DNA of 64,000 nt, taken from IMG/VR virus record IMGVR_UViG_3300034159_000041, positions 2,614 to 66,613 of that record; one strand, given 5' to 3'. The DNA comes from a virus. Positions 23,273 through 51,400 of the stretch are shown here, piece by piece; within the stretch, counting starts at the first letter, position 1; the number at the start of each line of letters is the position of its first letter. The notes beneath the pieces were generated by a model. That model was not told the origin of the DNA, ran no database searches, and saw only the letters and a list, made by a program, of their open reading frames with translations. The translations under genes were made by a program, and so were the position numbers.

Positions 23273-23458
23273 TCAAGGTCTGGCGCCCAGGCCGGCAAGC
23301 TCGTCGGCCGCGAACTCCTGCTCCAAGCGGGACGCCTCGCGGATATCTTCGATCCGCCGCCGCACGATCCCGGAGCGCAGGGCCTCGGGGTGACAACCGC
23401 CGCGGCTCTCAGGAGGCGCTGGGAGGCTTGTCGGCGCGGCGGGCGCTTGGCGGCTCAC
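23273..23458 (-). CDS. Hypothetical protein
   Basis: GTGA overlap; RRRIEDIRE motif. Confidence 0.45.
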   Translation of the reverse strand: MSRQAPAAPTSLPAPPESRGGCHPEALRSGIVRRRIEDIREASRLEQEFAADELAGLGARP

Positions 23459-24324
23459 AGTCCGCACCCCCCAGCGCAGTAGACCGCATCCTCCAGGTCC
23501 AGGGTGTCCTGCCCTTCGCCCAGCGGCACGGCGTCAAGCGGGCGCAACGAGCGATGCAGATAGGCCGCCCCCCGCATCCCCGTCGTGGCCCGGATGGCGG
23601 TGTCGAACTCGACCACCTGGGTCCACTCATCGGGGCGGTTGCGTTTCATCTCGCCCCATTCGCGATCCGAGCGATTGGGGCACCCCAGACACGCGCTTTT
23701 GCCAAGCGCGTGATGCGGATAGTGCCGCTCCCACCAGGCTTGACAGTCCGACCGTGACATTTTCAGTGGGGCGATGAGCGGGAACACGTTATCGACCCAC
23801 CGATCCCGGCTCGGGGCGGCCCGGCGCGCCTCGTCGGTACTGATGCCGATCCAGACTTCACAGGATGCCTCGGGGATGCGCTGGCGCGACTGATAGCCCA
23901 GCAGTTCGCGTTGCTTGGCGCGCAGCGGGGCGAGCTTGTATTCGGCGGTGCATTGCCGGCGAATGCGGCCCTCGACCGGTCCGCCCGTGTCAACGAACAG
24001 GGGCATCGTGGCATAGCGCCCGGTGCGCCCAACCAAATCGGCGACCTTGACGTTCTCGCCGGAGTCGGCCGTGCGGGCAATCATCATGTCCTCGCGGATG
24101 TTGCCGGCGGTGACCCGGTGAAACGGGATGCCGGCTTTCTCGCACTTGCGCTCGCACCACGCGACATGATTCATCGTGCGCTCGCCGTCCCATCCGGTAT
24201 CGGCAAACAGCACATGGTCCGGGCGCTCCAACTCGTCGTGGATCGCCAGCAGGAGCATGACGCTCGACTGGACCCCGCCGCCTAAAGACAAAAATTTCAT
24301 TGTGTGGCTCATTGTGTGGCTCAT
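23455..24324 (-). CDS. PAPS-reductase-like (adenine nucleotide alpha-hydrolase) protein
   Basis: PP-loop LSLGGGVQSS, FADTGWD, RQCTAEYK, IGISTDE, KSACLGCP, terminal CAGGCGL. Confidence 0.85.
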   Translation of the reverse strand: MSHTMSHTMKFLSLGGGVQSSVMLLLAIHDELERPDHVLFADTGWDGERTMNHVAWCERKCEKAGIPFHRVTAGNIREDMMIARTADSGENVKVADLVGRTGRYATMPLFVDTGGPVEGRIRRQCTAEYKLAPLRAKQRELLGYQSRQRIPEASCEVWIGISTDEARRAAPSRDRWVDNVFPLIAPLKMSRSDCQAWWERHYPHHALGKSACLGCPNRSDREWGEMKRNRPDEWTQVVEFDTAIRATTGMRGAAYLHRSLRPLDAVPLGEGQDTLDLEDAVYCAGGCGL

Positions 24325-24548
24325 GGTGCGAACCGCTCGCGCAGGGCGTCGAGTTGCTCTTGCGTCAGCGGGATGCCCCAGCCCCGCGCCCCAAGCACGT
24401 ACCCCTTGGCACGCAACTGCTCCGGCGTCAGGCAGGAGCGGCCGTAGTGCGGATGCGCCGCGGTGTGCGACCCAACGCGGTGCGCGTCGAACCCGGACAG
24501 CGCCGTAAATTTCTCTTTGCAGGCTGGGCAGCCCCACGGTTCGGTCAT
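24321..24548 (-). CDS. FDXHR-type zinc-binding phage protein
   Basis: CPAC...FDAHR...C. Confidence 0.75.
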   Translation of the reverse strand: MTEPWGCPACKEKFTALSGFDAHRVGSHTAAHPHYGRSCLTPEQLRAKGYVLGARGWGIPLTQEQLDALRERFAP

Positions 24549-24678
24549 GATGCGCCTCTGTGAGCTTTTGCATGTGCCTTTTCAGGCTACCACGCGCCAG
24601 GTTGGTAGGCTACCCGCCATACCGCCCTCTCAGCGCGGCTACGACGAACGCCAGGGACTATCACGGCGGGTCGGCGCC

Positions 24679-26047: not shown

Positions 26048-26649
26048 GCGGCGGCCTCCTGCGGGGTCGGGTTGGTCGCTGGCACCTCAATGGCGAGGTG
26101 ACGGCAGGAGGCCACGAAGCGCGCCTCCATCGCGGGGGTCCAGGTGGTGTTGCTGACATTGCGCGGGGAGCGGGTCACGCTCGCGGCGGTTGGGTCTTTG
26201 CCGGACAACTGGTCGTGCAGGGCGGCCAGGTGACGCAGACCGACCGCCTTGCGATCCCCCCAGGTACTGCGCTCCAGGAGCCCCGCCTTGTCGCGCTCGG
26301 CCCGCTCGGCATACGCGCGCTGCTCGGGGGTGCTGCCGCCCTCGCACGCTGAGCGGAACTCGGCGATGCTCGGGGGCCAGGCCATCGTCGTGCGACAGCG
26401 GTCAATCCCGGTCTTGATCTGCTCCCCGGTCAGCCCCGCGATCCCCTCCGCCCACTCGCCCGCCAGTACCCGGTACTGGATGCCGTCAATCGACTCGGCC
26501 CACTTCGCCCCCCAGATCGCGTGAAACTTGAGCAAGAGCGCTGCGACCCACTTACTCGGCACCGTTGCGACAGGCTCGCTCGAACTCCTCGTAGAGCTTG
26601 CTCCCAACCCGTGCAGTGCGGTCGCCGCGTGATTCGTGATGTGATCCAT
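26044..26649 (-). CDS. Lambda P-like replication protein/helicase loader
   Basis: EWAEG..GLT.EQI..G..RC...WPPSIAEFR; follows the initiator. Confidence 0.7.
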   Translation of the reverse strand: MDHITNHAATALHGLGASSTRSSSEPVATVPSKWVAALLLKFHAIWGAKWAESIDGIQYRVLAGEWAEGIAGLTGEQIKTGIDRCRTTMAWPPSIAEFRSACEGGSTPEQRAYAERAERDKAGLLERSTWGDRKAVGLRHLAALHDQLSGKDPTAASVTRSPRNVSNTTWTPAMEARFVASCRHLAIEVPATNPTPQEAAA

Positions 26650-27697
26650 TGCCGTTGCCTCCGGGGGCGGGTTGATTGAGTGGGAACAGACCAGCCCATC
26701 CCGAGCGGACGGACTTCTCAACGATGGCGACCTGATCCTGCGGCGGCTGTCCTGACAGGACTTTGGCGTTGAGTCGCATCGTGTCAGGGGTCCAATCCCT
26801 GGGCTTGACGCTGCCGCGGTGCCGGTCGAACAGGCTCCAGGCGTCCGGGTCCACGTCGGCGGGCAGCACGAAGGGGTCTTGCTGTCGCTTCCCGCGACGT
26901 GGGCGCGCATCGGCAGGCGGGTCCGCAACGGGGGGCTTAGGGGGTTCTCCCCCTTCTGCATGGCTGTGGATCTGGATGGCAGGCGTTAAGCAGGCATCCA
27001 AGCAGGCATCAGACGCCTGGTTAAGCAGGCGTTCAAGCAGGCGTTTTTTCCAGCCATCAGGGCGCAAGTCTTTAGTATTCGGACCTTTACTTGAATTACA
27101 CTTACTGCATAGTGGCTGAATGTTGTCTATTCCATCACTACCACCTAGGAATATGGGTAATATGTGATCTTTGACCAGAAAAATGCCTCCCAGGCGTTCA
27201 ACGCCCGGCGTTCCGCACATCACGCAGCGCGCCCCGCAGATATCGACCAGCGTCACCCACTCGACCGCCGTGTGCGTGCCCTTCTTGCGCGCCTCGCTCA
27301 ACCGCTGGGAGCGCGTCGGGCGCAGGTCTTTCTCCTGCGCTTCGCCGCCCCACTTGCCGGCCGCGCCCTTGATGCCACGGTCGATCTTTGCGGTTTGCGC
27401 CGTCTCTGCCCATTCCATCTCGCGTTCCGCGCGAAAGTGCCTGAACAGCAGGCCATGCTCAGGGTCATCAAACGGCTTGAAATACTCGTGCAGGACGGTC
27501 TTGATCGCCGCCTGCTCACTCGCACTCATCGCGTGACAGATTCGATAAACCTTTTCCATGTCCCCCGGCAACGGCCGCCCGTGCTGATAGACGAACTCCA
27601 GCAGCCGCATGTACGCACCGAGTTGCATCAGGTCCAGATGTGACGTGTCAGCGATCCAGTCGGACCAGAAAAACCTGACGTAAGGGGTCTTTTTCAT
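26552..27697 (-). CDS. DUF1376/YdaU replication initiator with internal HNH domain
   Basis: SDWIADTSHL...GAYMRLL N-terminus; CVMC...KDHILP..GG...NIQPLCSKCNSSKG; GWAGLF C-terminus. Confidence 0.82.
   Translation of the reverse strand: MKKTPYVRFFWSDWIADTSHLDLMQLGAYMRLLEFVYQHGRPLPGDMEKVYRICHAMSASEQAAIKTVLHEYFKPFDDPEHGLLFRHFRAEREMEWAETAQTAKIDRGIKGAAGKWGGEAQEKDLRPTRSQRLSEARKKGTHTAVEWVTLVDICGARCVMCGTPGVERLGGIFLVKDHILPIFLGGSDGIDNIQPLCSKCNSSKGPNTKDLRPDGWKKRLLERLLNQASDACLDACLTPAIQIHSHAEGGEPPKPPVADPPADARPRRGKRQQDPFVLPADVDPDAWSLFDRHRGSVKPRDWTPDTMRLNAKVLSGQPPQDQVAIVEKSVRSGWAGLFPLNQPAPGGNGNGSHHESRGDRTARVGSKLYEEFERACRNGAE
26978..27049. repeat. Intragenic origin-like repeats AAGCAGGC x4
   Basis: Copies at 26988, 27000, 27023 and 27035 inside the initiator gene, as in lambdoid ori. 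Confidence 0.6.
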
Positions 27698-27999
27698 GTT
27701 CTGCCACCGTCGTGAACATGGCAGTACATCCCGCTATCGTATTTTTCCTTCCATGTTCCAACCGATTGGTCTGGGGGATTGCATAAACGCTTGCATCGAC
27801 GCCCTTTTGCCGTCAACTCCGCGCACCTGACGCGCCCCTCCTGCTCCACATAAACCGCGTGGTCTGCTTCAGACAAACCAAGCAGGCTCGCTTCAAACTG
27901 TTGCGGATTCGCCAGATACTGCGTCAACGCTTCAAGCGGTTCGACAAATGATTGAGCCCCGCCAGGAACTGCGACCTCGATCACTAAATAGGCGCTCAT
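27694..27999 (-). CDS. Zinc-binding hypothetical protein
   Basis: C...TAKGRRCK...YCHVH motif; ATGA overlap with initiator. Confidence 0.6.
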   Translation of the reverse strand: MSAYLVIEVAVPGGAQSFVEPLEALTQYLANPQQFEASLLGLSEADHAVYVEQEGRVRCAELTAKGRRCKRLCNPPDQSVGTWKEKYDSGMYCHVHDGGRT

Positions 28000-28230
28000 G
28001 TCGGCGCCCCCGTGCAAAACCTGAAAAGATGCGGTAAACTTGCTGTCAGCATTGATCGATACCTTGAATATCGGTTGGTGATACCCGGCCCGGTGCTCCA
28101 ACACCTGGCCGGTTTTTTTATGTCTGCGATTCCCGTCTGCGCCGTTTTGGTGCGTACCTCTTTGGGTCTTGCTTTGCGCGACTGGATGATTTAGTGTACT
28201 TTGTGCGTTATACAAATACAAGGTGAAGTC

Positions 28231-28452
28231 ATGCCAAAGCCCGCTAAAATCCTCCTGACCGTCCGTGTGGAATCCACCTTGAAAGAACGCCTTATGTCCC
28301 GTGCCGACACCGAAAACCGCACGCTGTCGAACCTCGTGGACACCGCCTTGCGGACGTACTTGGGTGAGGGTGCGATCCAGCCACGAGCCCCCCGCCGCCC
28401 GCGCGCCCCGGCAGCCAGTAGCGAGTCGCAGGCGCTGGTCGGGCTCGGCTAG
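28231..28452 (+). CDS. Ribbon-helix-helix DNA-binding protein
   Basis: LTVRVESTLKERL..RA...NRTLSNLV..AL; AAGGTG RBS. Confidence 0.65.
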   Translation: MPKPAKILLTVRVESTLKERLMSRADTENRTLSNLVDTALRTYLGEGAIQPRAPRRPRAPAASSESQALVGLG

Positions 28453-28513
28453 GGGCATGGCAGCGCCCCCGTGCGCGCCCGTGCCGCGATGGGTGCCGGC
28501 GCGGGGGCTGGCG

Positions 28514-28738
28514 TCAGCCATTGGCGCCATCCTCGAAGAAATTGAAAACAGCAACGCACGGCTCGCACTGATCGAAAGTCCCGAACCCATGCCGGCAAAA
28601 TCCATATCCCGGTTCTAATCTTTCTCCGCAGGTAGGGCAAAGGCCATCTTCTGCCTTTTTCACGGGTTCGTCGGTCCGCTTTCCAGCAATGTGACCGATG
28701 GCGCTGATCGAATCCTGACTAATGCTTATCGGCATCAT
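28514..28738 (-). CDS. Zn-ribbon protein
   Basis: CPTC and CEPC; GAGGG RBS. Confidence 0.5.
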   Translation of the reverse strand: MMPISISQDSISAIGHIAGKRTDEPVKKAEDGLCPTCGERLEPGYGFCRHGFGTFDQCEPCVAVFNFFEDGANG

Positions 28739-28755
28739 CCTGCCCTCATAATTGG

Positions 28756-28792
28756 AAAAACGCCCGGCGCGGGAGTTTCCCCCCGGCCGGGG
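28756..28792 (-). terminator. Putative intrinsic terminator downstream of iscB
   Basis: CCCGG...CCGGG stem followed by CGTTTTT. Confidence 0.45.
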
Positions 28793-28883
28793 AATACCAC
28801 CGAGAGGAAAGGATGTCAGGCGATCCCAGCCCGCAGTTGCGTAGCCTTGCGGAGCACGATGGCGAAAACTCAGCGGGGCCATC

Positions 28884-30209
28884 TCAATTCGTCGTCGCCG
28901 TTGAGATTCGAGCGGCCTGTCCGTAGGCATAGCCGTCGCCTCGCTGAACCAGCGTGAAGCGACTCCACGGGGCCGAGATATTGGCCCCCTCCCTGGTCTT
29001 GATGTCGAGTTTCCCGGTCGCGCGAATACCGGTCAGGCGCCCGGTATGCGCCCCTGCATACTTGCCGCGCGGCTGGTCGAGCGTCACCAGGTCGCCGGTT
29101 TGGAAACCCTGGACGCGCTTGACCCGGCCAGCCCCGCCGCGGGGAAAGCCGAAGCGGTCGGACGTGACCACTTGGCGCTGCCCGCGCCCGGTCGCCGTGA
29201 TGGTCAACGCGCTGGCCTGCGGATCGAGATTAACGTGTGCGCCGTCTTCACCGACGCAGGCGGCGTCGATCCAATGGTCTTTCGGATAGTCCTGGTTGGT
29301 ACGGTTGAACTTGGTGCGCCCGCCCGACCAGAACGACACCGGGAGACCGACCTCCTTCAAGGCGTCGCCAATGGCGTAGCGGGTCGCGTTGACCGCCGCG
29401 GCATCCTTGAGCGGGGCCTTGAGCCGCGCCTTGACCTTCGCCAGCACCGCGGGCCGGTCAGCCAGGAACACCTCAACCGACTGCGCGCCCTTGCGCTGGT
29501 TGCACGGCACGCAAGCCGCGACCAGGTTGCTCGGGCGATTCGATCCGCCGCGGGCGCGCGGAACGACGTGCTCGATCTCCAGCGGCACCCCCTTGGCAGC
29601 GCAGTAGGCGCACTGGTGGCCGTCGCGGGTCAGCACGTACTGCCGGACCTCGACCCCGGCCAGCGTACCCTGTTGGTAGCCGACGCCTTCGATGCTGGGG
29701 TCCTGCATGAGTTGCATGTCGAAGCGCACCAACTCGACCGCCGCCGACGTGATGGGGGCGCGCGACAGCAGGCGGTCGTACCAGGTGCGCACGTTATCGA
29801 CGCGCGAGCGCAAGGACGGCGGCAACCAACCCGCGGGACGGGTGCGGTTGTCAAAGCGCGGTGCCCGATAGCGGGTCTTGCGCCCGCGCCGCCCGCAGCG
29901 AATCACTCGCCGGTCGGTGAGGCGCTGGCGCACGGCCTCGCCGCGATGCTCCAAGTTGGCCGCCCACAGCGCCACGCGGCCCTGCTGCGGGAACTCCCCG
30001 ACCAAGGCCAGGCCGGTCGTCTTGCTGCCCGGATCGACGTTGAATGCGACTGGCTGCACGTCGCCGTCGTCGCGGTCAAGCAAGATGATCGTGAACGGTT
30101 GCGTGCGGTAGACCGCCGCCCGCCCGGCTTGCAGCAAACGCCGAGCGCGGGCGGGCCGGCACGGCATCAGCGGTTTCTTGGTGGAACTGAGGACAAACAC
30201 TGTATTCAT
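28884..30209 (-). CDS. iscB: IscB RNA-guided endonuclease (PLMP, RuvC, bridge helix, HNH)
   Basis: PLMP, ARARRLL, VDPGSKTTG, RRGRKTRYR..RFDNR, ELVRFD, CAYC..EHVVP..NL..CVPCN, HWIDA. Confidence 0.95.
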   Translation of the reverse strand: MNTVFVLSSTKKPLMPCRPARARRLLQAGRAAVYRTQPFTIILLDRDDGDVQPVAFNVDPGSKTTGLALVGEFPQQGRVALWAANLEHRGEAVRQRLTDRRVIRCGRRGRKTRYRAPRFDNRTRPAGWLPPSLRSRVDNVRTWYDRLLSRAPITSAAVELVRFDMQLMQDPSIEGVGYQQGTLAGVEVRQYVLTRDGHQCAYCAAKGVPLEIEHVVPRARGGSNRPSNLVAACVPCNQRKGAQSVEVFLADRPAVLAKVKARLKAPLKDAAAVNATRYAIGDALKEVGLPVSFWSGGRTKFNRTNQDYPKDHWIDAACVGEDGAHVNLDPQASALTITATGRGQRQVVTSDRFGFPRGGAGRVKRVQGFQTGDLVTLDQPRGKYAGAHTGRLTGIRATGKLDIKTREGANISAPWSRFTLVQRGDGYAYGQAARISTATTN

Positions 30210-30214
30210 CGGTT

Positions 30215-30472
30215 GCTCTTGTTGGTTTACACCACGCCCGAAGGCGTAACGGTCTCCTCGCCCAGATATCCGACGGTTTTCAGTAAACGCACTGCCGTAG
30301 GTCGCGCCCGTGCTGTTTAACGTCTACCCGCAGCGCATGAAACTGGAGAAGCATTTCATGGTGCCTATCTATTCGTCGGTATCGACTGCCCCGAAGGGCG
30401 GGCTGGTTGAATCTCATGATCCCGCTTCCCCGTCACGACGACGGGGGAGCGGCATCAAGGCGACGACTCAAC
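30215..30472 (-). ncRNA. omegaRNA (HEARO-like) scaffold of IscB
   Basis: Minus strand: GTTGAGTC/GATTCAAC stem, ACCAGCC, ATAGGCACC.TGAAATGCTTCTCCAGTTTCA, TTAAACAG, CAGTG, AAAACC, GGCGAGGAGA; position just 5' of iscB. Confidence 0.85.
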
Positions 30473-30783
30473 TACGCCGCTGGCGTATTGGCTGAAACAG
30501 CGTCAGCCAGCGCCTGGGTCTGTGATCCAAGGCGCTCGGAGAGGTCGGCGAGGGCATCGGGGTCGGAGCTTGCGATGGCGTCGTCAAGCTGTTGCTTCAG
30601 GCCCTGCAGCAGCGTGATCGCAGAGCCGGTCACGGTGGCGTTGGCTTCGACTTGTTCGGTGAGGGCGGTCAATTGGTCGGACATTTGGGTCAGTCTCTGG
30701 TTGATGGATGAAAGGACCTGATCAATCGCCGTGAGGCTTTCGAGCAGGCGGTTAGGAAGCAAGAAGAAGTCGAGCAGGCTCAA
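30472..30783 (-). CDS. Coiled-coil phage hypothetical protein
   Basis: SAITLLQGL...LADAVSANTPAA; TTGA overlap. Confidence 0.65.
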   Translation of the reverse strand: MSLLDFFLLPNRLLESLTAIDQVLSSINQRLTQMSDQLTALTEQVEANATVTGSAITLLQGLKQQLDDAIASSDPDALADLSERLGSQTQALADAVSANTPAA

Positions 30784-30977
30784 GCAGGGGGCTCCGTGGT
30801 GAGCGCATCGGCCCATTCGCGCAACAGGGCCACCGCGCCATGTAGTTCGGCCGCGTGCTGGGGCCAGGGATCGGCGGTGATCCGCGCCATGTCTTCGGCC
30901 ACAGAGGACAGGCTGTCGGCGTGAATGCGTAGCCTGACGGCGATGCTGAAGGGGTTGGTGCGGTCGCGTGGGCTCAT
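30780..30977 (-). CDS. Hypothetical protein
   Basis: GGAG RBS, ATGA overlap. Confidence 0.55.
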   Translation of the reverse strand: MSPRDRTNPFSIAVRLRIHADSLSSVAEDMARITADPWPQHAAELHGAVALLREWADALTTEPPA

Positions 30978-31204
30978 GCGGCCGTCTCCCTGGCTGGGTA
31001 GCGCGGAAGTAGCGTCCACTGCACGGGGGGGCGTTCTAGCTCCTCTTCGGTGGCGTCAGTCCACGTGCCGTCACGCCAGTAGCAGCACACCATCATGTCC
31101 GGGATTGCGGGAAGGTCATCATCGAAGAAGCCCAGGACCGGCACGCCCGACGGTGGCAAGTCGCCAGTCTCTACTCGGTGCCACTCGGCCACGGGGTTGG
31201 TCAT
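30974..31204 (-). CDS. DUF551-like protein
   Basis: WHRV...LP...VL...W..LP pattern. Confidence 0.55.
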   Translation of the reverse strand: MTNPVAEWHRVETGDLPPSGVPVLGFFDDDLPAIPDMMVCCYWRDGTWTDATEEELERPPVQWTLLPRYPARETAA

Positions 31205-31452
31205 GCGGCCACCTCCTTGCTTGGGGCGGCAAGCGACGCCGCGGTAATCCGCTCGGGGCAGGGCTCAGACGCCGGCAAATTGGCGCGACGCAACGAGCCG
31301 GCCCACCGGGCGTGCAGCGGGTCGTCCTCGCCATCTTGGAAGCGTGCGCATCCACTGCGCTCCGCCCCGCAGGTCTGGCCCAGGCACCGCAGCGCGCCGA
31401 CTGGCAGGCTTGTCCTGGGGGCGAACAGCAGCGCGCCGGGTGGGGCATTCAT
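31201..31452 (-). CDS. Cys-rich small protein, paralog B
   Basis: RCLGQTC...GCARF...EPCPERITAA. Confidence 0.6.
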   Translation of the reverse strand: MNAPPGALLFAPRTSLPVGALRCLGQTCGAERSGCARFQDGEDDPLHARWAGSLRRANLPASEPCPERITAASLAAPSKEVAA

Positions 31453-31658
31453 GCGGCGCGCTCCTTGTCGTTGGCGGCCAACTGCGCCGCGGTGATCCGC
31501 TTCGGGCAGGGCTCGGCGGCCGGCAGGGAGGCCGGGCGGAGAGTGCTGGCCCACGGGGTTTTTTTGGGATTGATGTCGCGATCCGAGAAGCGCAGACAGC
31601 CGGTACGCTCTTTGCATGTCATGCCCAAGCACCGAGCAATGTTGGCTGGCAGGATCAT
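31449..31658 (-). CDS. Cys-rich small protein, paralog A
   Basis: RCLGMTC...GCLRF...EPCPKRITAA. Confidence 0.6.
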   Translation of the reverse strand: MILPANIARCLGMTCKERTGCLRFSDRDINPKKTPWASTLRPASLPAAEPCPKRITAAQLAANDKERAA

Positions 31659-31900
31659 CGACGCTCCCAGCGACACGCCGCGCACGATGGCGCAGCAACG
31701 GGCGGTCGCCGCCGCTGGCTCGCTTGCAGATTCGCAAGGACGTCGTGCGTGATCTGCTTGACCAGCCCGCAGCAGCGCGTTTTGACTTCGTAAATTGTGT
31801 CGCATTGGCGCCGCTCGGCCGCGACGACGGCGAGGATCACCACGTTGGCGACCGTCTCGCCGACCTTGAAACGGTCCCAGGCGCGCGTGGTTATGGACAT
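31655..31900 (-). CDS. Zinc-binding hypothetical protein
   Basis: CCG...CAAC. Confidence 0.5.
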   Translation of the reverse strand: MSITTRAWDRFKVGETVANVVILAVVAAERRQCDTIYEVKTRCCGLVKQITHDVLANLQASQRRRPPVAAPSCAACRWERR

Positions 31901-31937
31901 GCGCCCCCCTGTCCAAATGGCGCAGCGTGACGCTTGG

Positions 31938-32102
31938 TTATGCGCCCGGTGGCGGTTTGCGACGCATTGCGCAAACCACCGCCCGCTCGACCCATTCGGT
32001 CACCGTGACTTGCGCGATTTGCGCGGCCAACAGGAGTTCCAGTTTGAGTTCTGGCGTAATGCGGATGTCGAGTTTTGCGGTTCTGAGCGGTTTTTGTGTC
32101 AT
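31938..32102 (-). CDS. Ribbon-helix-helix regulator
   Basis: TAKLDIRITPELK..L..AA....VTEWV. Confidence 0.65.
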   Translation of the reverse strand: MTQKPLRTAKLDIRITPELKLELLLAAQIAQVTVTEWVERAVVCAMRRKPPPGA

Positions 32103-32253
32103 GACGGTCTTGCTTTTCCCCTTGGAAATAAATAAGCTTCGTGTCATGACAGGGAAACCACACAGTCGATCCAGCAATCACGCGCTTCATCGGTGCGATC
32201 AACCAACGGTTGCGATCGCGATTCAATTGGCGCAGTCGCATGATTGCGCTTTC

Positions 32254-32460
32254 TTAACAGAAACGGAAAAAGCGCAGCCGCTGGGGAGCGGGCGCACGCG
32301 GCAACGACAAGGCAAGGACCGCAAGAATAAACGCATGATCGGCGACAGGCGGTGGCACGCCCATATCGCAACTCACGCGCTGGTAGATAAAGTGGCGCTC
32401 GATCAGCGCCAGCACGGCGTCGGGATCGACCGCGGCGCCGGTCTGCGCATGGGCGTTCAT
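32254..32460 (-). CDS. Hypothetical protein
   Basis: ATGA overlap with cro. Confidence 0.4.
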   Translation of the reverse strand: MNAHAQTGAAVDPDAVLALIERHFIYQRVSCDMGVPPPVADHAFILAVLALSLPRAPAPQRLRFFRFC

Positions 32461-32741
32461 GAGGCGGCGCACCCGCAGACGGGGGCCGGCGTGGTGCGGT
32501 GCGCTTCACGGTGGCGCTCCGCGGGTGGATCGTCGGGTGCGTTTCCAAAAATATCCGGGCGCAGTTCATGCACGGAGACCGCCCCGTTGGTCGCCGCCTG
32601 GATCGCCAGGCAGCGCGTTGGCGAAAACGCGCGCCTGTTCGTGACCATTTGATACAAATAGTGTTTAGAAATACTTAAGGCCCGCGCCAGCGCGAGACGG
32701 CCGCCATGCGGAAGGGCATCGTAGTAGGTGCGAATATCCAT
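32457..32741 (-). CDS. cro: Cro/YdaS-family regulator
   Basis: LARALSIS..YLYQ...I..ATNGAVSVHELRPD; divergent from repressor. Confidence 0.85.
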   Translation of the reverse strand: MDIRTYYDALPHGGRLALARALSISKHYLYQMVTNRRAFSPTRCLAIQAATNGAVSVHELRPDIFGNAPDDPPAERHREAHRTTPAPVCGCAAS

Positions 32742-32748
32742 GCAGCAA

Positions 32749-32808
32749 AATATAGCCTTAGCTACACATCTTTGCAATAGCCCAGGCTTCTCTGCCGGCT
32801 GTTATGGT
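32749..32808. promoter_or_regulatory. Divergent PR/PRM-like promoters with TAGC-N4-GCTA operators
   Basis: Minus: TTGCAA-17-TATATT; plus: TGnTATGGT; operators at 32753-32764 and imperfect 32778-32789. Confidence 0.65.
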
Positions 32809-32814
32809 GCCGGC

Positions 32815-33390
32815 ATGACAAGAAAAGACCGCTTGCAACAGTTGATTGACTCCCGCGCCGAGGGCAACCAGGCCGCGTTTGCCGGCATGGTCCACCGCAC
32901 CCCGCCAGTCATCTGGCAATACCTGAGCGGACATCGCGAGATGGGCGAGAAGTTCGCACGGCATATCGAAAGATGCTTGCGGCTGCCCACTGGTTGGATG
33001 GATCAGGCCAACGACACCCCGGCGAGCGCGGCCAACGACCCCGCGGCAGACGCCCCGTCCCACCCCCTCTCGCCCGCGGCGCTCATTGACGATCTGTTGG
33101 TGGTCACCGGCACGGTGAGCGCGGATGCCCGCGATGACCTGCTGCTGTTGCTCACCCGCTACATCAAAACAGACGATCAGGACCGCAAAGAGAAAATCGC
33201 GCGGATGCTCAACGATCTTTCGCCCGCCGTCCCTCACCGCCGCCCCGGCGCCAGCATCAGCAAGGCCAGTTCCTGCCCGCCGCACAGACGGCGTTGGGAT
33301 GAGGTGTATGCGCGCGAGACGGCGGCGGCCCACGACGCCGAGCAGGCCATCCTTAAAGCGAGGCAAGCGCGCGACCTGGACCGGGATTAG
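32815..33390 (+). CDS. cI: CI-like repressor (HTH, no S24 peptidase)
   Basis: RLQQLI...NQAAFA...QYLSG.R.MGEKFAR.IE..L.LP.GWMD. Confidence 0.8.
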   Translation: MTRKDRLQQLIDSRAEGNQAAFAGMVHRTPPVIWQYLSGHREMGEKFARHIERCLRLPTGWMDQANDTPASAANDPAADAPSHPLSPAALIDDLLVVTGTVSADARDDLLLLLTRYIKTDDQDRKEKIARMLNDLSPAVPHRRPGASISKASSCPPHRRRWDEVYARETAAAHDAEQAILKARQARDLDRD

Positions 33391-33413
33391 CGTCCTCGCT
33401 TGGTGCCCGCCGC

Positions 33414-33434
33414 CCCGCTGACGCGGGTTTTTTT
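33414..33434 (+). terminator. Intrinsic terminator after cI
   Basis: CCCGC-TGAC-GCGGG-TTTTTTT. Confidence 0.75.
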
Positions 33435-33448
33435 GTGCCCGTAAAATG

Positions 33449-33490
33449 TAGCAGACGCTATTGACATGACGGTGTAGCAATTGCTACTCT
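33449..33490 (+). promoter_or_regulatory. PL-like promoter with two operators
   Basis: TTGACA-18-TACTCT; TAGCagacGCTA 33449-33460 and TAGCaattGCTA 33475-33486. Confidence 0.75.
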
Positions 33491-33536
33491 TTCTCCCATC
33501 GGCCAGCCGCCCCGGCCGGCCCCACGGGAGACCCGC

Positions 33537-42425: not shown

Positions 42426-45400
42426 CTAACCCCCGAACGCCGCGGCGGCCTCCTGGCGCAGTTCCGGAGACAGCGCCTTCAGGAACCGCTCGCTGTTGGT
42501 TAACTTCAACGCGCGGATGCGCGCCCGCAACTGCGCCGGTTTCCACTCAATCGGCGTGTCCGGGTTGGTGCGGTTCCAGTCGGCGATGTCGCGCTGTGCC
42601 TTGGCGACCCCGGCCTGATCCCGCTTAACCGCGGCCTGCGCCATGTTGCCCATGTAGGTCTGCTCCATCTTCTTGCGCAGGCTGTCGCGCTCCAAGATGC
42701 TGTATTTCTGCTCATTGAACTGCGCGACGCGGGTCGGGTTGAACCCCAAGAACTTGAACGCCGCCTCGGTGCGCGACACCGGGATCAGCGGGGTGCCGAA
42801 GCGATCCACCGCATCCCCGCTCACCATGGCCGTGGTGCCGTCAACAAAGCCCTTGAGCGCCCGCGGCAAGAGGGCATAGCCGGCCCGGTCCCACTGCCCG
42901 CGCGCCGCCTGCTCGACGGCGGTCCCCACATCCTTGACCACGCCCGCAGTTGGCCCCCACAACTCCGAGACCTCGCGCGTGCTGCCCAGGCTGGAGGGCT
43001 TGAGGATCCCGGTCGCGGGGATCAGGTTGCCCATGCCGACGCGACTGGCGATGTCAAACGGCAGTCCGGCCCGGCTGATCCCGTTCACCACCACCGGGCC
43101 GATGGCCTCGCCCAGCAGTTTCTCGGCCCAGGTGTTGAGTTCCTGGCGGGTCTGCCAGTTCTTCCCCCACCACTGCATGATGGTGTCAATCAGGTCCTCG
43201 GCGTCTTCTTCCCCAGGCAGGCCCCCGAGACCGGCCCCGACCACCAGGGCGGCAAGCATCAGCGCCCGCTGCTTGGTCGGGACGCGCGAGAGCAATTCCA
43301 TGTACTGCACGGAGAACATGCGAAACGTGAAAAGAGGAGCGCCGATCCCGCGCGCCCACGGCGGCCGGTTTTCCTTGCGCATCACAAACTGCGTGCTGTT
43401 GACGCCATCCTCGGCGTACTTGAATGCGGCCTCACCTTTCAGCCCGTTGCCTTCTGCCTGGCGGTAGGCCGCGACGAACGTCACCTGTCGGTTCACTTGC
43501 TCGGCCAAACTGAAGAACGACCCCCACACCGTCATGGCAAACTGCGCGTTCGGGCTCGACATGATCCGGCCGCCCCCCAGGGTGCCGCCGCGGGCGGTGG
43601 CCATCAGGTTGTAGACCCCCTGCGGTGCGATCAGCCCCTCAAGTTCAGCGCGGGCGTAGGCGTCCCCGAGCGCGGTCCCGGTGGCCGGTGGACCCTTGAA
43701 CACCTGCGCATAGGCGTCCTTGAGTAGCTGCGTCACGTTGCCCGGCTGCTGGGTCATCCAGGGGGCGGTGACCATCGGGACTTGCGAAAGGTTGGTCACG
43801 GCCGATGCCACGGACGCGCCGAGATACCACGCAAACAGGAACTGGCGCAAGCCGGCGAACTCTTCGTTCGGGTCGGCGAGGTAATCCCGTAAGTTGATCG
43901 CGTAGGTCCGCAAGTCGCCGTTTTCCTGCTTGATCGCGTCGATGGCGTACCCCACGTCGCCCGCGTTCAAGTTGTTGCTGGAGAGCCGGGCGTTGCTGAC
44001 GATGTAGGAGGCCAGCACGCGCTGCGCCTCGGTCGAGTACCCGGCGATGCCTTCGCGGTGCAGCAGACTTTTCAGCGCGCTGGACTCGGCCGCCGCCAAC
44101 CGGATGTACTCTTGCATCAGGTCGGCGAGGTTCTTGCCGTCGTCGGTGCTGGTGTCCATGTGGTCGGCGAACAAGCTCAGGGTGTCCATGTTCAAGCCGC
44201 GGAAGAGTTTGTAGCCTTCCTCGGACGTGATCCCATGCACCACCTCCTGCCCGGCCCCCTTGGCCTCACTCATGGCCTTGTAGGCGGCCATCTGTTCGGC
44301 CTCGCTCGCGTACTTGGCGAAGTAGATCACCGCGCGCTCGTTGGTGTCGGGGTCGGTCTGCCAGACGGTCACCGCCCACTTGCCGAAGCGCTTCAGCGGG
44401 AAGTAGCCCTCGGCCTTGAGCTTTTCTACCTTCTCGGCAATGCCATCGATAGACGCCTGAGTGGAGTCGATCTTGTTGCGCAGCGTCGTGGCCTGCTCGA
44501 ACCCAAGTTCCGCCGCCTCCAGGTTCTTACGCGATTGGTGCAGGCCAGACTGCGCGTCGTCCTGCGCCTCCTGCGCCCGCTGGAGCGCCGCGTAGGCGGA
44601 TGGGTAGTCAGCCTTGCCGGCCGCATCCAGCGCCTGCTGTGCGGCGCGGGTCGCCTTCTTGGCGGCATCCAGCGCCTGTTCGTCGGCGTCGCGCTCCGCG
44701 GTCATCGTCTTGACCATGTTCTGCGCGGTCACGACCGCCTCGGCCACGTCTTCCCGGATCGCGGAGAGCACTTGCTCGGCATTGCCGGCCGCCGCGGTGA
44801 CGTGCTCATCCATGATCTGCCGCGCCAGCCGCCCGGAGAGGGCGTGGCGCTCACGCTTGGGTAGGTCCGCGTGCAGCACCTCCAGCAGCGAGCGCATGGC
44901 CCCGACCTGGAAGGTCTGCGCCGACGTATCGAGCGACTGGTGCGTGGCCTTGAGCGCCTGGTTATAGCTTTCGATCTGCCGGTCGGAGCGACCGCGCGCC
45001 TTGAGTTCTGCGACGCTCCAGCGGTGCTTGTTGAGGGTGCCTTCGTTCAGGTCGGTCTGCACCCCGTGCAACTCGCGCGGGCTCATGGCGGAGCGCACCT
45101 GTTTTGCCGACGCCCACGCCGCGCCCATGCCCTTCTCCATCTGGGTGAACCAGTGCGGGGCCAGCGATTCGGCCTGCATGGCAAAGGTGGAGTTGTCATC
45201 AGACTGCCGGGTCAGCCCGTCGTAGACCGGCTTGAACTGCGGTTCGCGAATAGAGAGGTTGCGCGGTGTGCCCACGGACTTATCCCACGCGCGGACCTTG
45301 GCGGAGGTCTGGCGGCCGGGGATGCCCGCGCCGTAGGGCATGAACCGATCGAGCACGTCGGCGATGCGCGACGCCAGGGTGCGGGTTGCCCCCGGAGCCA

Positions 45401-48400
45401 CCCCCGCCCCGCCGATGGCGAAGCGGATGTCGGGGTCGGCGGATTCGTCCAACCGTCCGGAATCTCCGGATGGTTCGGCCTGCCCGCGGCCGGTGGCGAG
45501 GCGGGCGTTGGCGTCGCGCGTGCCCGTCCCCATCCCAAAGCGCCCCCGCAACTGCGCCCGTACCCGGTCATCCCCGGTGCGGTTGTATTGAGCCACCCCG
45601 GCGACGATCTCGCGCAGGTCGGCATTGTTGAGGTGGATCACGAGCCCGAGCTTGCGCAAGAAAGCGCGGATCGCGTTGTAGACCCGCAGCAGGAATGGCT
45701 GGTCCTTGCCGTGGTTGACCTCGGCCAGATGGGCCAGGAACTCGTCAGCGGCCTCGCGGCGCTGGGCGAGGCTTTCCATGGACAAACCGCGCGCATCCGC
45801 GTAAAGCTGGACATCAGCGTTGCGGTCCTTGATCAACTCATCTAAGAATGGGTTCAGGGTTGGCCCGAAAACAGACCGCGCGCCGGAATGCCACCCCTCA
45901 TGCGCAAGGACCGTGACCATCGCGTCGCGCACGTCCGCCACATTGTCAGCGACCACCCAAAGCACGCCCTTGGTCGGGTTGCCCTCTGCGTCTTTCGGCC
46001 CAGCCAGGAACACGGCTTTCCCGCGGGCGGTCGGATCAACACTGCGCGCCCGCGCCAGCCCCTCCAGCGTCGCGGCCGGTAGATCCCCCTCCGTCTGCAC
46101 CACCCGCAGCGTCGCGGCCCCAGACAGCCCGCGGAGCTTGCCAAACAGCGGTTGCAACTTCGCATCAAGGAAAGCCCGCGTGAGCCGGGGGAGCGCGGCC
46201 GATCGCGGGCGGGTTTGGGTTGCGCGGCCGAGCGTGCCGCCGATGGACCAGCGGGGTTCAGGGGCATCACCTCTCTGTGCCGCGTCACTGCGCGCCCGCT
46301 GAGCCTTAGCCGTCGCACCCAGCCCCTCCAGCACCTGTTCACCAATCCCGGTCGGCCGGTTCATCCGTTCCCACAGGCTCAGCGCCTGCCAGTCGTCCGC
46401 CGCCGCCCGCCGCACCGTGGCCCCGTGCGCCTTCAACTGCGCCAGGTCCTCGATGTTGATCCACCGCGGGGCCTGGGGCGGTTTGTTTTCCCACTCCACC
46501 ACCCACACCCCGGCCGGTAGCGCATCGGCCGCCGCCACGTTCGCTCCAGACGGCGCCACAAACGGATGCTCGGTGTACTTGCGCTCGCCGTTGGCGTCGC
46601 GTAGATCCAGGTACGACACCCGCCGCGCCCGCTCGCCATCGAGCACATGCACGAAATACCCGTCATCGGCCCATTGGTGCCCCTCGACCACTACCTCCTT
46701 GGTCTGCGGTCCTCGACTCTGTATAGGCTTCGTCGTTACACTTGCCCCCCCGGTGCCGGCGCCGGCCATTCCCCCGTGATCTGGTGTCTCGGGGTTTAGT
46801 TGAAGAACGTAGGCCAGCGTATCGACCGGCGCCCCATGACGCAGCCAGGCCGGCGCCGGCACCGGGTTGCGCGCCATGTCGGCTTCGATCTCATCCAAGC
46901 GGGTTTGCTTGCGCTCCAGGTCCTTGGCGCGGGCGAACGGTTGATCGGCCAGTTCCTCCAGCTTGGGACGGTCGGCTCGCAGGGTCGCGGCCTCGGCGCG
47001 GACTTGCCGCCCCGTGCCCCGTAGCCCGCGCAAGGTGTCGGCGACGGCGCCATAGACCCCGTAATGCACGACCGAATCAGTGAGCGACACCAGTTGCAGA
47101 TAGACGTTTTCTTTGCCGACATGGCGCCCTTCCAACGGGAACCCAAAGACCTCGCCGACCGGATGCCAGCCGCTTTTTACCGGCATCCGCTGATACAGCG
47201 TCTGGAACGCCTCGCCGAACGCATCCCGCGTGGTGAAGTGATCATTCAACAACCGCGCATCAAACGGCTTCGTCGTCGGCTCTTTCGGTCGCTCGCGCCC
47301 CTCGGCCTCGGCCGCTTTCACCGCCGCCTGCACCCGCTTCGCCAGTTCGCGATCGGGCTGCTTGTTGCCCCAGCCATCGGCTCGCACCGCCGCCCGCTCA
47401 GCCGCGGTCAGGTTCAGGTCCAGCCCATCGACATAGACCGCGACCTCTTCGCGGTAGGCATCCTGCTGCCGCTCCCCGGCCGCCGCCTCGGCTTGCTCGA
47501 ACAGGTCGGCATCCGCGTCATAGCGCTTGGCCTGCGCCTCTTTCTCCGGCACCAGGCGCTCATTGCGGGCCAACTTCTCACGCGCCTCCACCACCCCCTG
47601 CGCGTGGGTGCGCTCGCGCCGCTGGAGCTTCTGCACATCCACCGTCAACTTCTGCCGCTGCAACAGCCGCGGATCGCCCACCGCCTCGCTCAGCGTCTCG
47701 GCATAGCCGCCGCCCTCATCGTCGCTGACCGCATCGCCCTCAATGACCCTGGTGTCTGCATCCGCGTGCAGGAACGCCTTGATGAACCGATCCTTCACCG
47801 CGAGCACCTGCCAGCGCTTGCCGTCGATGCGCTCGGTGATGTAGCGATACTCCAGCACCGTGTTCCAGGTGTTGCCCTGACGCCAGCCGCGCCCGTTGCG
47901 CTGTTCCAACTCGCCCGGCATCCATGGGGCGTCCAAGTGGTGCATGGCACGCAGCCGTTGCTGCATGTTCACGCCGGTGCCCAGGGTCTCGGTCTGCCCG
48001 ATCACGATGCGCACCGTCCCGGCGTTGACCGCATCGGCCACCGCCTTTTTCTGCTCGGGCGTCACCCCGCCCGCGACGATTGCGATCTCGTGCGCCGGCA
48101 CGCCCTCGGCCAGCAGCTTGGTACGCAGTTCTTTGGCGAGGTTATGTCCCGGAACCTTCACCTTAGCGACCGTGCGCGTGTCGGAATAGCCCTTGTCCAT
48201 GAACACCACCTGAGCGGCCTGGGGCTCGCCGCGGTAGTGATGCAGGAGGTTACGGACCGCGCGGTTCACCTTGCTCTCGGGATGCTCCGGCAGGCTCAGG
48301 TCCTCCATGCGCGCATCCATCCCCGCCCGCGCCGCCGCGCCCTCAATCATGATCGGCGAGTGCGGATCGCCGGTCTTCATCCAGTCCAGCCGCTGTTTGC

Positions 48401-51400
48401 CACCCGCTGACCGCCACTCGGCCGCGAGTTGCTGGAGCCGCGCGAGGATCGCCGCTTGCTCCGGGCTCATCTCCGCCACGTCCATGACCACCCGCTTGTA
48501 CGGTCGCCCGACCGGGTTCTCCTGCCGCCCGTTCTGCAAGGCGTCGATCTCGTCGGCCGTCAGGTCGGCATCGGCCAGCGTCTTACCGCTCGCCGTCTTG
48601 CGCGGCGTGAACTCCGGCATCTCGTCGGCGAACACCACATCCATGTACGGACTCATCATCCGCCGCAGCTCGGCCACGTTGATGAACCCGGCCAGCTTGG
48701 TGACCGGCTGATAATCCCCGGCCGCCGTAAACTCCACATCCGACACGCCGCTCGCAAAGGTATTGAACCAGCTATCCCACTGGTCAATGCCGTCGCGCGC
48801 CATGTCCTGCTGCATGACATAGCGCTGCATGTGGAAGATTTCGGCCAGGGTGTTGGTGATCGGCGTGCCGGTGAACAAATGCACCCCACGCCCGGCGTGC
48901 TGCCCCTTGATGTAGTCGGTGAGGAACTTCAGGGCCACCGAGCGATTGCTGATCTGCTTTTGCAGCCCGCGCATTTTCATGCGCGTCGCCATCGGGGGCT
49001 TTTTGAAAAGATGGGCCTCATCGACAATCAGCATGTCAACGCCCAAGTCCTCAAACGCAATCGCATCCTCCCGGCTCGACTGCTGCGCCTGCTTCTCGAT
49101 CTGCGCCTTGATGCGCAGCCGCGCCTGCGCCAGTTCCTTGGCTGTCGGGTTGCGTAGCTTCTTGATGGCGTCCTCATCGTCCAGCATGTCCTTATGCACC
49201 GCCCGCCCGAATCCCGCCTGGTTTGCGTCGCCCTCGTCCATCGCCTCCCAGAAAGCCGACTCCAGGGCCGCGATATCCTCGGCCGCCAAGGCGCTCAGCG
49301 TCTCCTTTTTCAGCGTCAGCCGGTCCAGCAGGCTATGCGGCATCACCACCGCATCCCAGTCGTCGTTGCGGATTTGCGCCATGGTTTCCTTCACGCGCGA
49401 GGAATCCAGGTTGTTGACGTACAACACCTTAGCCCCTGGATACATCTCCTGAATCTCCGCCGCAACGCTGGCACTGTTGGCGTTGTGGGCCAGGATCAAC
49501 GGCTTTTGCGCCAACCCGAACCGCCGCGACTCGACTGAGATACCGCCAATGGTGTAGGTCTTGCCCGTCCCGACCTCATGGGCATACAACCCCGACCCTT
49601 GCACCAACCCCCGCCAGATCGCGTTGCTTTGGTGTGACCGCAGGTCAAACTCGTTATCCCCGCGCTGGAGCGCCATCCCATCAAACGCCAGGAAGGACCC
49701 GTCGAACTGCGGATCGGCAATCGCGTTCATCACCTCGTTGTAGTCGCGCTCCAGGGCCACCTTGCGCTCGGGTGACTTCCACACCCATTCCTCGAACGCC
49801 TCGCGGATCGCCCCGGCCCGTTCGTTGGCCGCGGCACTGAACGCCTCGCGGGTGTAGGTGTTGCCCTCTGAATCCTTCGCGGTAAACTTCATGGTCCCGT
49901 TGTTGAAAGCCGCTTCCAGCAACTGCCGCAAGCGCACCGTCCCGCTATCGCGCTCGCGCAACACGGGCTTGCCCTCGCCATCCAGCAGAGGAACGTCTTT
50001 TCCGGTTGCCGCGTCCTTGGTTGTGACTTCCTCAAACGCCTTGACCTCGCTCCACCGCAACGCCGTTGGCGTGTCCTGATGGGCATCGCTGGGCTTCACC
50101 ACCCACCGATTGATCCGCCACTCCAGTTCCAGGTTTTCCGCAACGTCGGCATTCCCAATGATCACCTCAGCCACGAAGTCGCGGTAATGCTTGGCGCCCA
50201 CCCACTGCGCCCCCAGCTTGGCCTCGATGTTGAAGTACGGCACATCCTTGGGGATCACCTTCTCCAGATGTTCGATGTTGCGGGCCATCTCCTCGCCCTG
50301 CTCCGCCGCCGCTTGTGCCTCGCGTAGCTTGCGCCGCACGTTGCCGCCCAGGTAGACATCAGAGGGTTCATAGCCGCCGCCCGGCAGCCGATAGACCGCG
50401 CCCGCCGTCACCAGGTCCTGTTCGGCCTGCTCCACCGGCACCCCGGCCGCCGTGGCAATCCGCGCCATGTCGATGTGCAGCCCCTGGTTGCGTTCCACCA
50501 CATAGGCATCGCGCACCGTGGGCCTGTCGATCTTCGCCGACGTGCGCACCACCGAGCGGTGCAGGATCGGCATCGGCTCGATGACGCCATCGCGCACCCG
50601 CTCCAGGGCCATCAGCGACGGGTAGAAGGGGTCCTCGGCCTTGTCGAGTAGGCGGATACCCTCGGACTCCCGCACCGGACCGTGCGCGTCGCGGAACGCC
50701 TCGTACTGCTCGCGCAGGGTCTTGCGCAACGCCTCGGTGTCGGGCGCCCCGTCGCGCTCTGCGTCGATCAGCCGTCCGTAGGCCTTGCGCAACCCCACCA
50801 GCCCGCGCAGTTGCGCGTCGCGCTTGGCGGTCTTCTTGGCGTCCTTCACCTGCCACGGCACCACGTCGTGCAGGTTCACCAGCCGCTCGCCCTGCGTCTG
50901 GTAGAGGTCACCATCCGCACCGATCACCACGGCGCGCGAGCGCTCCGTGGTGTTGTTGGTGATGTAGCGGATGTGTTTCGCGTTGTTCGCCGGGGTATAG
51001 GTCCCCGTCGTCATCTCATCGGCCATCGCCGCCAGACGCTCAGGGAAGTCGTCCCCGCGCTCAACGATCACCCCGGCCCGTCCGTAGGTCGTGCCGCTGC
51101 CCCATCCCAGTTCACCCAGGATGTTGTCGCGGTTGAGCAGGTAATACCGATTGATCGCCGCCTTCTGCCCGTCCGCCCCGAGGTCCAGGTCCTCGGTCTG
51201 CGTCCACGCTGATGATTGCGGGTCAGTGTTTTCCGTCTCGCGCTTTTTCAGGATGATCAGGTCGGTCACCACCGCGGTACCGGCATATTCCTTGAACGCC
51301 CCAGACGGCAGCCGATAGGCCGCCACCAGATCGGCCTTGCGCGCCAGCGCCTGGCGCACCGCGTTGCCCTTGCCGTCCAGGCTGTAGCGGCTGGTGATGC

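Follow-up and report, generated by a model that had tools for sequence, protein, structure and literature searches.

The window considered here is a stretch of 64,000 nucleotides, positions 2,614 to 66,613 of the IMG/VR virus record IMGVR_UViG_3300034159_000041, which carries on its minus strand an iscB gene preceded by the gene of its guide RNA (omegaRNA). Together they form an element of about 1.67 kb, running on this strand from approximately 30472 to 28801-28804 (all positions are those of the window), which is almost certainly a non-autonomous insertion sequence (IS) of the ISC type, from the IS200/IS605 superfamily, consisting of the omegaRNA gene and iscB only. The record (66,613 bp, direct terminal repeats, estimated to be 100% complete) represents a tailed phage from peat and encodes portal, major head and head-closure proteins. 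The insertion lies between the stop codon of a phage gene and a terminator-like hairpin, in the same orientation as this upstream gene (Table 1).

Table 1. Features of the IscB element and of its immediate flanks
Feature	Window positions	Strand	Description
Upstream phage open reading frame (ORF)	30472..30816	minus	At most 114 aa, coiled-coil-like; ends with the stop codon next to the element
Predicted guide	30473..30492 (last 16 nt 30473-30488)	minus	Adjoins the scaffold on its 5' side; final 20 nt of the upstream ORF, with the TA of its stop codon
omegaRNA scaffold, HEARO type	30210..30472	minus	Rfam match, RNAalifold, conservation start at 30472
iscB	28884..30209	minus	441 aa, intact; Pfam, solved-chain, alignment and fold evidence
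Stop-codon hairpin	28882..28906	minus	Loop 28891-28899 (GGCGACGAC) complementary to omegaRNA nt 6-14 (30467-30459)
Element 3' untranslated end	28801..28883	minus	Homologous to relatives as far as ...GACATCC (28811); end 28804 or 28801
Candidate target-adjacent motif (TAM)	28796..28803: TCGGT (28803-28799) or GTGGT (28800-28796)	minus	Deduced from the relatives' NNGGA
GC-rich hairpin + T5, terminator-like	28756..28792	minus	Fold -32.5 kcal/mol, z -1.9; not picked up by a simple terminator scan

The IscB protein

The product of iscB is recognised by its domains, by its likeness to solved structures and by its predicted fold. The Pfam domain RRXRR (PF14239) covers residues 4-181 (9e-67), the KKPLMPC segment is found, the catalytic Asp of RuvC-I is D59, and the HNH domain inside RuvC is matched by both PF14279 (HNH_5) and PF01844 (HNH) at about 1e-11. 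When the protein is compared with solved structures by sequence, IscB chains score best (TbaIscB, 8.8e-40; OgeuIscB 7xht, 9.9e-30) and IsrB is weaker, and E159, H312 and D315 correspond to the KDH..D motif in the solved IscB chains. The original prediction, made from the DNA letters before any database search, stated that the RuvC and HNH residues are intact, and the alignment agrees, because RuvC D59, E159, H312 and D315 and HNH H214 and N228 are invariant in all 21 aligned relatives, as are the zinc cysteines C200/C203/C233/C236. An AlphaFold model built from 21 sequences (mean pLDDT 76.5) retrieves with Foldseek the IscB-omegaRNA-DNA complexes as top matches (8csz_D, E 3.2e-25; 9liq_A; 9k30_A). 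The whole-chain matches have TM scores of 0.46-0.54, the sequence alignments to solved chains end at residue 320, and the C-terminal domain (335-431) is modelled as rich in beta structure.

Natural variation of the gene is seen in a variant contig from two of the peat-metagenome runs (X1 and X3), which spans 29709-29939. Over these 231 nt it has 25 differences, 16 in third codon positions; 22 codons are touched and 5 amino acids are changed. Since this variation is mostly synonymous, purifying selection appears to act on the IscB protein. RNA-guided, TAM-dependent DNA cleavage, which is expected of any IscB-omegaRNA element, is predicted by analogy here as well.

The omegaRNA, the 5' edge and the guide

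The omegaRNA fills the 262 nt separating iscB from the stop codon of the preceding ORF. Its presence had been proposed from the letters, and the search with the Rfam HEARO model supports it: RF02033 matches 30246-30450 (minus strand) over the full model length with 76.7 bits (E 7.8e-15), though under the curated gathering threshold of 83 bits, and this is the single match within the window. Among the 14 relatives searched, 12 also match, at 36-108 bits, and just three reach 83, so the score of the window element is typical of its clade.

The first stem of the RNA (P1) is formed by GTTGAGTC (30472-30465) with GATTCAAC (30413-30406), that is, GUUGAGUC with GAUUCAAC in RNA letters, and is part of the minimum-energy fold. 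RNAalifold analysis of 14 omegaRNAs gives 56 consensus pairs, 44 of them with compensatory changes; P1 is kept in all 14, and in two of these U-A is replaced by C-G. The 5' subterminal hairpin of the element, CCCCGTC...GACGGGG, is present too.

It had also been claimed that the first stem begins exactly at the stop codon of the upstream gene. This is accurate to the base, because position 30472 is both the G of the TAG stop of this ORF and the first base of P1. The upstream flanks of the relatives are mutually unrelated, and conservation starts at GTTGAGTC (GTCGAGTC in two) in 15/15 clade members with the motif located, the last flank base before the scaffold being free to vary. In near-identical element pairs having different flanks (L028/L106, 97% identity; L004/L006, 89%), the likeness ends 259-265 nt before the start codon, and the corresponding distance in the window is 263 nt. 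The 5' edge of the element is shown by this comparison to be exactly 30472. The guide is therefore predicted to be the 16-20 nt ending at 30473, which is the end of the upstream gene placed 5' of the scaffold, just as originally proposed; the guide of OgeuIscB is about 16 nt long. Since the element landed at a stop codon, the guide is simply the adjoining DNA. It is unique in the window, where it has one exact match and three others with 3 mismatches each.

In the region upstream of iscB in three relatives (L002, L007 and L008), a segment of 20-35 nt that includes the first scaffold bases is found one more time some tens of bases further upstream, which looks like a duplication of the scaffold start or a mini-array.

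The 3' end and the candidate TAM

A hairpin, TCTCAA-13 nt-TTGAGA, lies over the iscB stop codon (28906-28882), and the region of about 28855-28811 aligns in MAFFT with the 3' untranslated ends of the relatives. In the relatives these ends contain a subterminal hairpin of the form N5-8 CATCC(A)TG N5-8, followed by CTTC. In the alignment of 17 sequences (16 relatives and the window), 82% of the cells in this hairpin are paired versus 66% in shuffles, 6 of the 8 pairs covary, and the covariation score is reached by none of 500 shuffles. The window hairpin is degenerate, with 3 of 8 pairs: its left arm and CATCC loop remain, whereas the right arm is lost. The claim that no IS-type end hairpin follows iscB has to be qualified accordingly: there is a hairpin at the stop codon and the 3' end is homologous to those of the relatives, but the subterminal hairpin is indeed decayed. 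The element has no terminal inverted repeats.

The 3' flank of the relatives reads NNGGA, with G at +3 and +4 in 17/17 unique flanks and A at +5 in 12/17. Two ends come into question for the window element (a slash marks the junction): 28804/28803 (...TTTCCTC/TCGGT), which fits the end motif better, and 28801/28800 (...CTCTCG/GTGGT), which is the choice of MAFFT and keeps the native TAG. Both are followed by NNGG, and MAFFT puts the window GG under the GG of the relatives. Mobilisation of the IS607 type (serine recombinase, GG core), suggested by the GG of the flank, was rejected on the ground that the 5' flanks lack a conserved terminal G.

A separate observation connects the two ends of the element. 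Nucleotides 6-16 of the omegaRNA, which the consensus fold leaves unpaired, show perfect complementarity of 8-11 nt with a site at most about 30 nt from the iscB stop codon, some 1.6 kb away. This pairing is present in 18 of the 21 clade members (30459-30467 with 28891-28899 in the window; L004, L025, L026, L105 and others) and occurs in four covarying sequence versions: GTCGCCGCC(GT), GTCGTCGCC, ATTGCCACC and (G)TCCCCGG(C). The site is in a 13-nt hairpin loop in the window and in L004/L038, not in every member. The pairing could act at the RNA level and link the guide RNA with the mRNA, or it could belong to the transposon as single-stranded DNA; it may couple the availability of the guide RNA to full-length mRNA, and it could be new, no description of it having been found in those parts of the published IscB/ISC literature that were available to us.

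Position in the phage genome

The absence of a tnpA gene, stated in the original prediction, extends to the whole 66,613-bp record, in which no Y1 transposase (PF01797) was found at E<=1, control genomes having given matches. The order of the minus-strand operon is as follows: small ORFs, the 114-aa ORF, the IscB element, an ORF for a 74-aa zinc-ribbon protein (ATG at 28738), and then the replication genes. The latter include 26552-27697(-), which joins a DUF1376/primosomal N-terminus, an internal HNH domain and an O-like C-terminus in a single ORF, and a P-like helicase loader further downstream on the same strand as the IscB element. Two divergent repressor-type genes are located at 32457-32777(-) and 32728-33390(+). 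Because the repressor-type genes are followed by O-like and P-like replication genes on one strand, "early operon", the location assigned from the letters, is a fair description. A sigma-70 promoter scan of 28400-31200 yielded no sites versus 0.5 expected, so its outcome carries no information.

Several neighbouring features were recorded. Two small tandem paralogues of about 83 aa (31201-31452 and 31449-31700, minus strand), in which the stop codon of one gene overlaps the start codon of the other and which share a 110-nt repeat at 72% identity, have no Pfam or PHROG match. The coding signal of 27700-28500 is poor on the operon strand; a weak match to the RT-12 RNA lies at 28023-28121 (E 0.38), and a possible ribbon-helix-helix (RHH) ORF at 28201-28452(+) (Pfam RHH_5, E 0.008, below the cut-off). 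An Arc-type RHH accessory gene, as described for some IS605 elements (10.64898/2026.09.24.754181), was considered for this ORF and rejected because some 350 nt and another gene separate it from the element, the RHH_5 match is weak, and IscB goes unmentioned in the cited paper. The same operon includes a PAPS-reductase-like gene at 23455-24573(-) (phrog_424, 1.6e-47). One ORF of 5,009 aa occupies 42426-57455(-) with a strong coding signal, its first 1,500 residues having no PHROG match at 1e-5.

Relatives and metagenome variation

Relatives of the IscB were found at 22 IMG/VR loci (best 64% identical), in 372 candidate stretches of metagenome contigs (best 72%, L025) and at 197 places in species-representative genomes (best 66%), with multiple iscB copies per genome in Vreelandella, Marinobacter, Ktedonobacter and cyanobacteria. 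Since the nearest IscB in the collections searched has 72% amino-acid identity, the window copy is without a known sibling. No DNA near-identical to 26500-33500 was detected in GenBank phages, and the exact 26-nt guide-plus-flank pattern has no matches in IMG/VR. The upstream 114-aa gene has one IMG/VR relative (48% identical, beside lysis-type genes and not syntenic) and none in GenBank phages, while no relatives of the downstream zinc-ribbon gene were found. For the replication protein, the best 80 of 111 related stretches include none from a close phage relative, the best match being 46% over part of the length.

Five sequencing runs are listed with the phage, all of them peat-metagenome DNA and none RNA, and contigs of four of these runs were placed on 27000-32000. 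The 5' junction is spanned by difference-free contigs in three runs (X1, X3 and X4), and the 3' junction by contigs in two (X1 and X3); X1 may be the sample from which the record came. Contigs skipping the element were found in none of the four runs, which is uninformative on absence, as contigs drop rare variants. In one X1 contig (depth 2.9, shorter side 32 nt), 30472 is connected with 31268 of the opposite strand, the breakpoint being exactly the 5' edge of the element; another insertion of it, an inversion or a related genome could account for this joint, and the sequence after 31268 (ACGCC) does not match the NNGG flank of the clade. A different joint, 29027-30381 (one contig, side 34), was set aside since it fits no boundary.

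IscB elements of Ralstonia phages

Homologues of IscB were revealed by tblastn in 20 of 50,697 GenBank phage records, 12 of which are Ralstonia phages, under the annotation "HNH endonuclease" or hypothetical. The Ralstonia phages carry at three sites a 1,732-bp IscB element whose copies are 99% identical and whose IscB is 48-49% identical to that of the window. The copy of phage Heva stands at the head of a RecE/RecT operon; those of Adzire, Elie, Simangalove and Sarlave follow an "immunity to superinfection" gene; and those of Claudette and Alix follow ssb. At two of the three sites, the gene upstream of the element is co-oriented with it. The HEARO match (111-120 bits) starts at the first base of the element. 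The sister phages Bakoly and Cimandef represent scarless empty sites, where 40/40 identical upstream bases are followed by ATGA, a flank of the N/ATGA class (PMC4810608).

Since the guide match and the TAM occur together in sister phages devoid of IscB, the arrangement seen in the window is the usual one, activity not being implied by this; the 99% identity of copies at three sites implies recent movement. Between two ATGA copies, the empty site of Cimandef (L187) contains 25 bp that Heva (L185) lacks, and this difference may be a repair scar or may result from a choice between adjacent TAMs. A search for publications covering both "Ralstonia phage" and "IscB" found none.

Discussion

The presented analysis indicates that the window element is an ordinary IscB element, in which the features that looked special represent the family default. 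ISC elements are known as non-autonomous relatives of IS200/IS605 with subterminal hairpins and without target duplication (PMC4810608). IscB loci are mostly without tnpA, use the flanking DNA as a guide and are biased towards the orientation of the upstream ORF, and both IscB and TnpB cleave donor joints (10.1101/2023.03.14.532601). The flank guide and the lack of tnpA, offered in the original prediction as distinctive, are thus present, as is the co-orientation, but they are the norm of the family (10.1101/2023.03.14.532601).

As a whole, the locus is probably best explained by a non-autonomous ISC insertion with a flank guide, which may retain a residual capacity for copying independent of TnpA or for hitch-hiking. 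According to the mechanism of the family, read-through of the phage operon would produce an RNA having at its 5' end the 16-20 nt from the end of the upstream gene as a guide. The IscB-omegaRNA complex would cut where a match to this guide is joined to the TAM (NNGG-type in the clade), a combination expected only in a genome without the insertion. The occupied site would be immune because the scaffold (GTTGA...) replaces the TAM. Since the 3' transposase-type hairpin is broken and there is no tnpA, movement dependent on TnpA has probably been lost, and the remaining route would be TnpA-independent copying into element-free phage genomes at co-infection, or hitch-hiking. That homing really operates for the window copy is somewhat less likely than not, and is proposed by analogy with the family.

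Several points weigh against this explanation. The HEARO score stays under the gathering threshold, and the predicted guide is self-complementary, its 6-bp hairpin TACGCC-AGC-GGCGTA being something that could lower targeting. The fifth TAM position is T at both candidate ends, and T was never seen in the 17 flanks of the relatives. The 3' edge is placed to about 3 nt, and if the GT/GG class (PMC4810608) applies, the target could have supplied the first two bases of the scaffold, and the TAG would again be kept. The phage record contains no second copy of the element, and the collections searched yielded neither an empty site nor a further copy nor a phage closely related to this one, so that for this locus we infer homing rather than see it.

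The original prediction went further and proposed RNA-guided homing or a phage-versus-phage weapon. The part of this proposal that holds is the cutting of the element-free allele, which is expected of any IscB-omegaRNA, but nothing shows the role of a weapon. In its strongest form, the proposal would be that an element without transposase mobility persists in phages purely as an RNA-guided gene drive, with the long-range pairing as a possible second layer. At co-infection, or when a resident prophage is met, the early-made IscB-omegaRNA would then cleave relatives devoid of the element where the 114-aa gene ends, after which the element would be copied in by recombination or the competitor would be eliminated. 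We regard this scenario as rather unlikely.

The main rival of the residual-copying explanation is a stranded relic, a neutral passenger whose ribonucleoprotein is not made or has no cleavable natural target, and which persists because its position between a stop codon and a terminator does no harm. The decay of the 3' subterminal hairpin argues for it, 3 of 8 pairs being left where 82% of the cells are paired in the 17-sequence alignment that includes the window itself, and so does the 5' hairpin loop, which departs from the CATCC(N)TG motif of the relatives. The record without tnpA, the single copy whose nearest IscB is 72% identical, the atypical fifth TAM position and the hairpin formed by the guide point in the same direction. 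A relic would hardly be expected, however, to combine a full-length ORF in which all catalytic and zinc residues are intact with an omegaRNA of conserved structure and with natural iscB variation that is mostly synonymous, and we consider this explanation unlikely.

Other alternatives are less probable still. The element could be an active IS moved in trans by the Y1 TnpA of the host or of another element, since lack of autonomy is typical of ISC elements and mobilisation in trans has been proposed for them (PMC4810608; 10.1101/2023.03.14.532601). The 99% identity of the Ralstonia-phage copies at three sites and the low-depth contig joint 30472/31268 exactly at the 5' edge would agree with such movement, but the degenerate 3' hairpin, the lack of another copy in the phage record or the collections searched, and the misfit between ACGCC and NNGG make it improbable. 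Domestication as a weapon or a regulator, in which IscB-omegaRNA would cut host or competitor DNA, or bind DNA, elsewhere than at its own empty allele, is suggested by the early-operon position and by published RNA-guided regulators derived from TnpB (10.1101/2023.11.30.569447). This seems very improbable, because the guide is exactly the flank, as in undomesticated elements, the nuclease residues are intact, and there is one omegaRNA and no second target within the window.

Phage-borne IscB elements recur, at 22 IMG/VR loci and in 20 of 50,697 GenBank phage records, where they are usually annotated as "HNH endonuclease". "Transposon non-restorative homing" into co-infecting phages or plasmids has been listed as a theoretical class (PMC13565253, Table 1), TnpB drive is described in plasmids (PMC13565253; PMC11870625), and a phage-borne tnpB identical to host copies is reported (10.64898/2026.02.14.705889). 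Cultured Ralstonia phages include both alleles, the occupied and the empty one, with guide match and TAM intact, and this makes the theoretical non-restorative homing of OMEGA systems between co-infecting phages directly testable. In addition, the decayed transposase hairpin of the window element hints that such elements can outlive the transposition machinery.

Comparison with known systems

The closest general counterpart is the ISC2/OMEGA IscB type (PMC4810608), with which the window element shares a lone iscB of about 430-440 aa having HNH in RuvC, a structured RNA of about 260 nt upstream, the lack of tnpA and of inverted repeats at the termini, and, probably, a target site marked by a short specific motif. 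It differs from ISC2 by its location in a phage and its decayed 3' subterminal hairpin. The flank of its clade, NNGGA after ...CTTC, is also outside the GT/GG, GT/RA and N/ATGA classes, although it may be GT/GG with a 2-nt offset (PMC4810608). ISGst5 IscB from Geobacillus stearothermophilus similarly takes its guide from the flank, has the omegaRNA upstream and the TAM at the other end, and is biased towards the orientation of the upstream gene, and cutting of the element-free site was proposed to restore or copy the element (10.1101/2023.03.14.532601). There, however, a cognate TnpA, many copies and demonstrated activity are on record, whereas the window offers a single copy, no TnpA and the genes alone (10.1101/2023.03.14.532601).

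The Ralstonia-phage element of 1,732 bp resembles the window element in being phage-borne, consisting of omegaRNA and iscB only, being co-oriented with its neighbours and using the phage flank as a guide. Unlike the window element, it has the TAM ATGA, both end hairpins (GGCCTGAAGGCC) are intact, and its insertion is polymorphic among sister phages. Free-standing homing endonucleases of phages (SegF and SegB; PMC13565253) are comparable as nuclease genes placed between conserved phage genes that would cut the allele without the gene at co-infection. In contrast to these, recognition by IscB depends on an RNA guide and a TAM and not on the protein, and self is distinguished from non-self by the presence of the insertion and not by substitutions (PMC13565253). 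The plasmid drive of IS605 TnpB represents the same kind of TnpA-independent spread of an OMEGA-bearing IS, there among copies of a multicopy replicon (PMC11870625); it concerns TnpB and plasmids and is backed by experimental proof (PMC11870625), whereas the element described here combines IscB with a phage.

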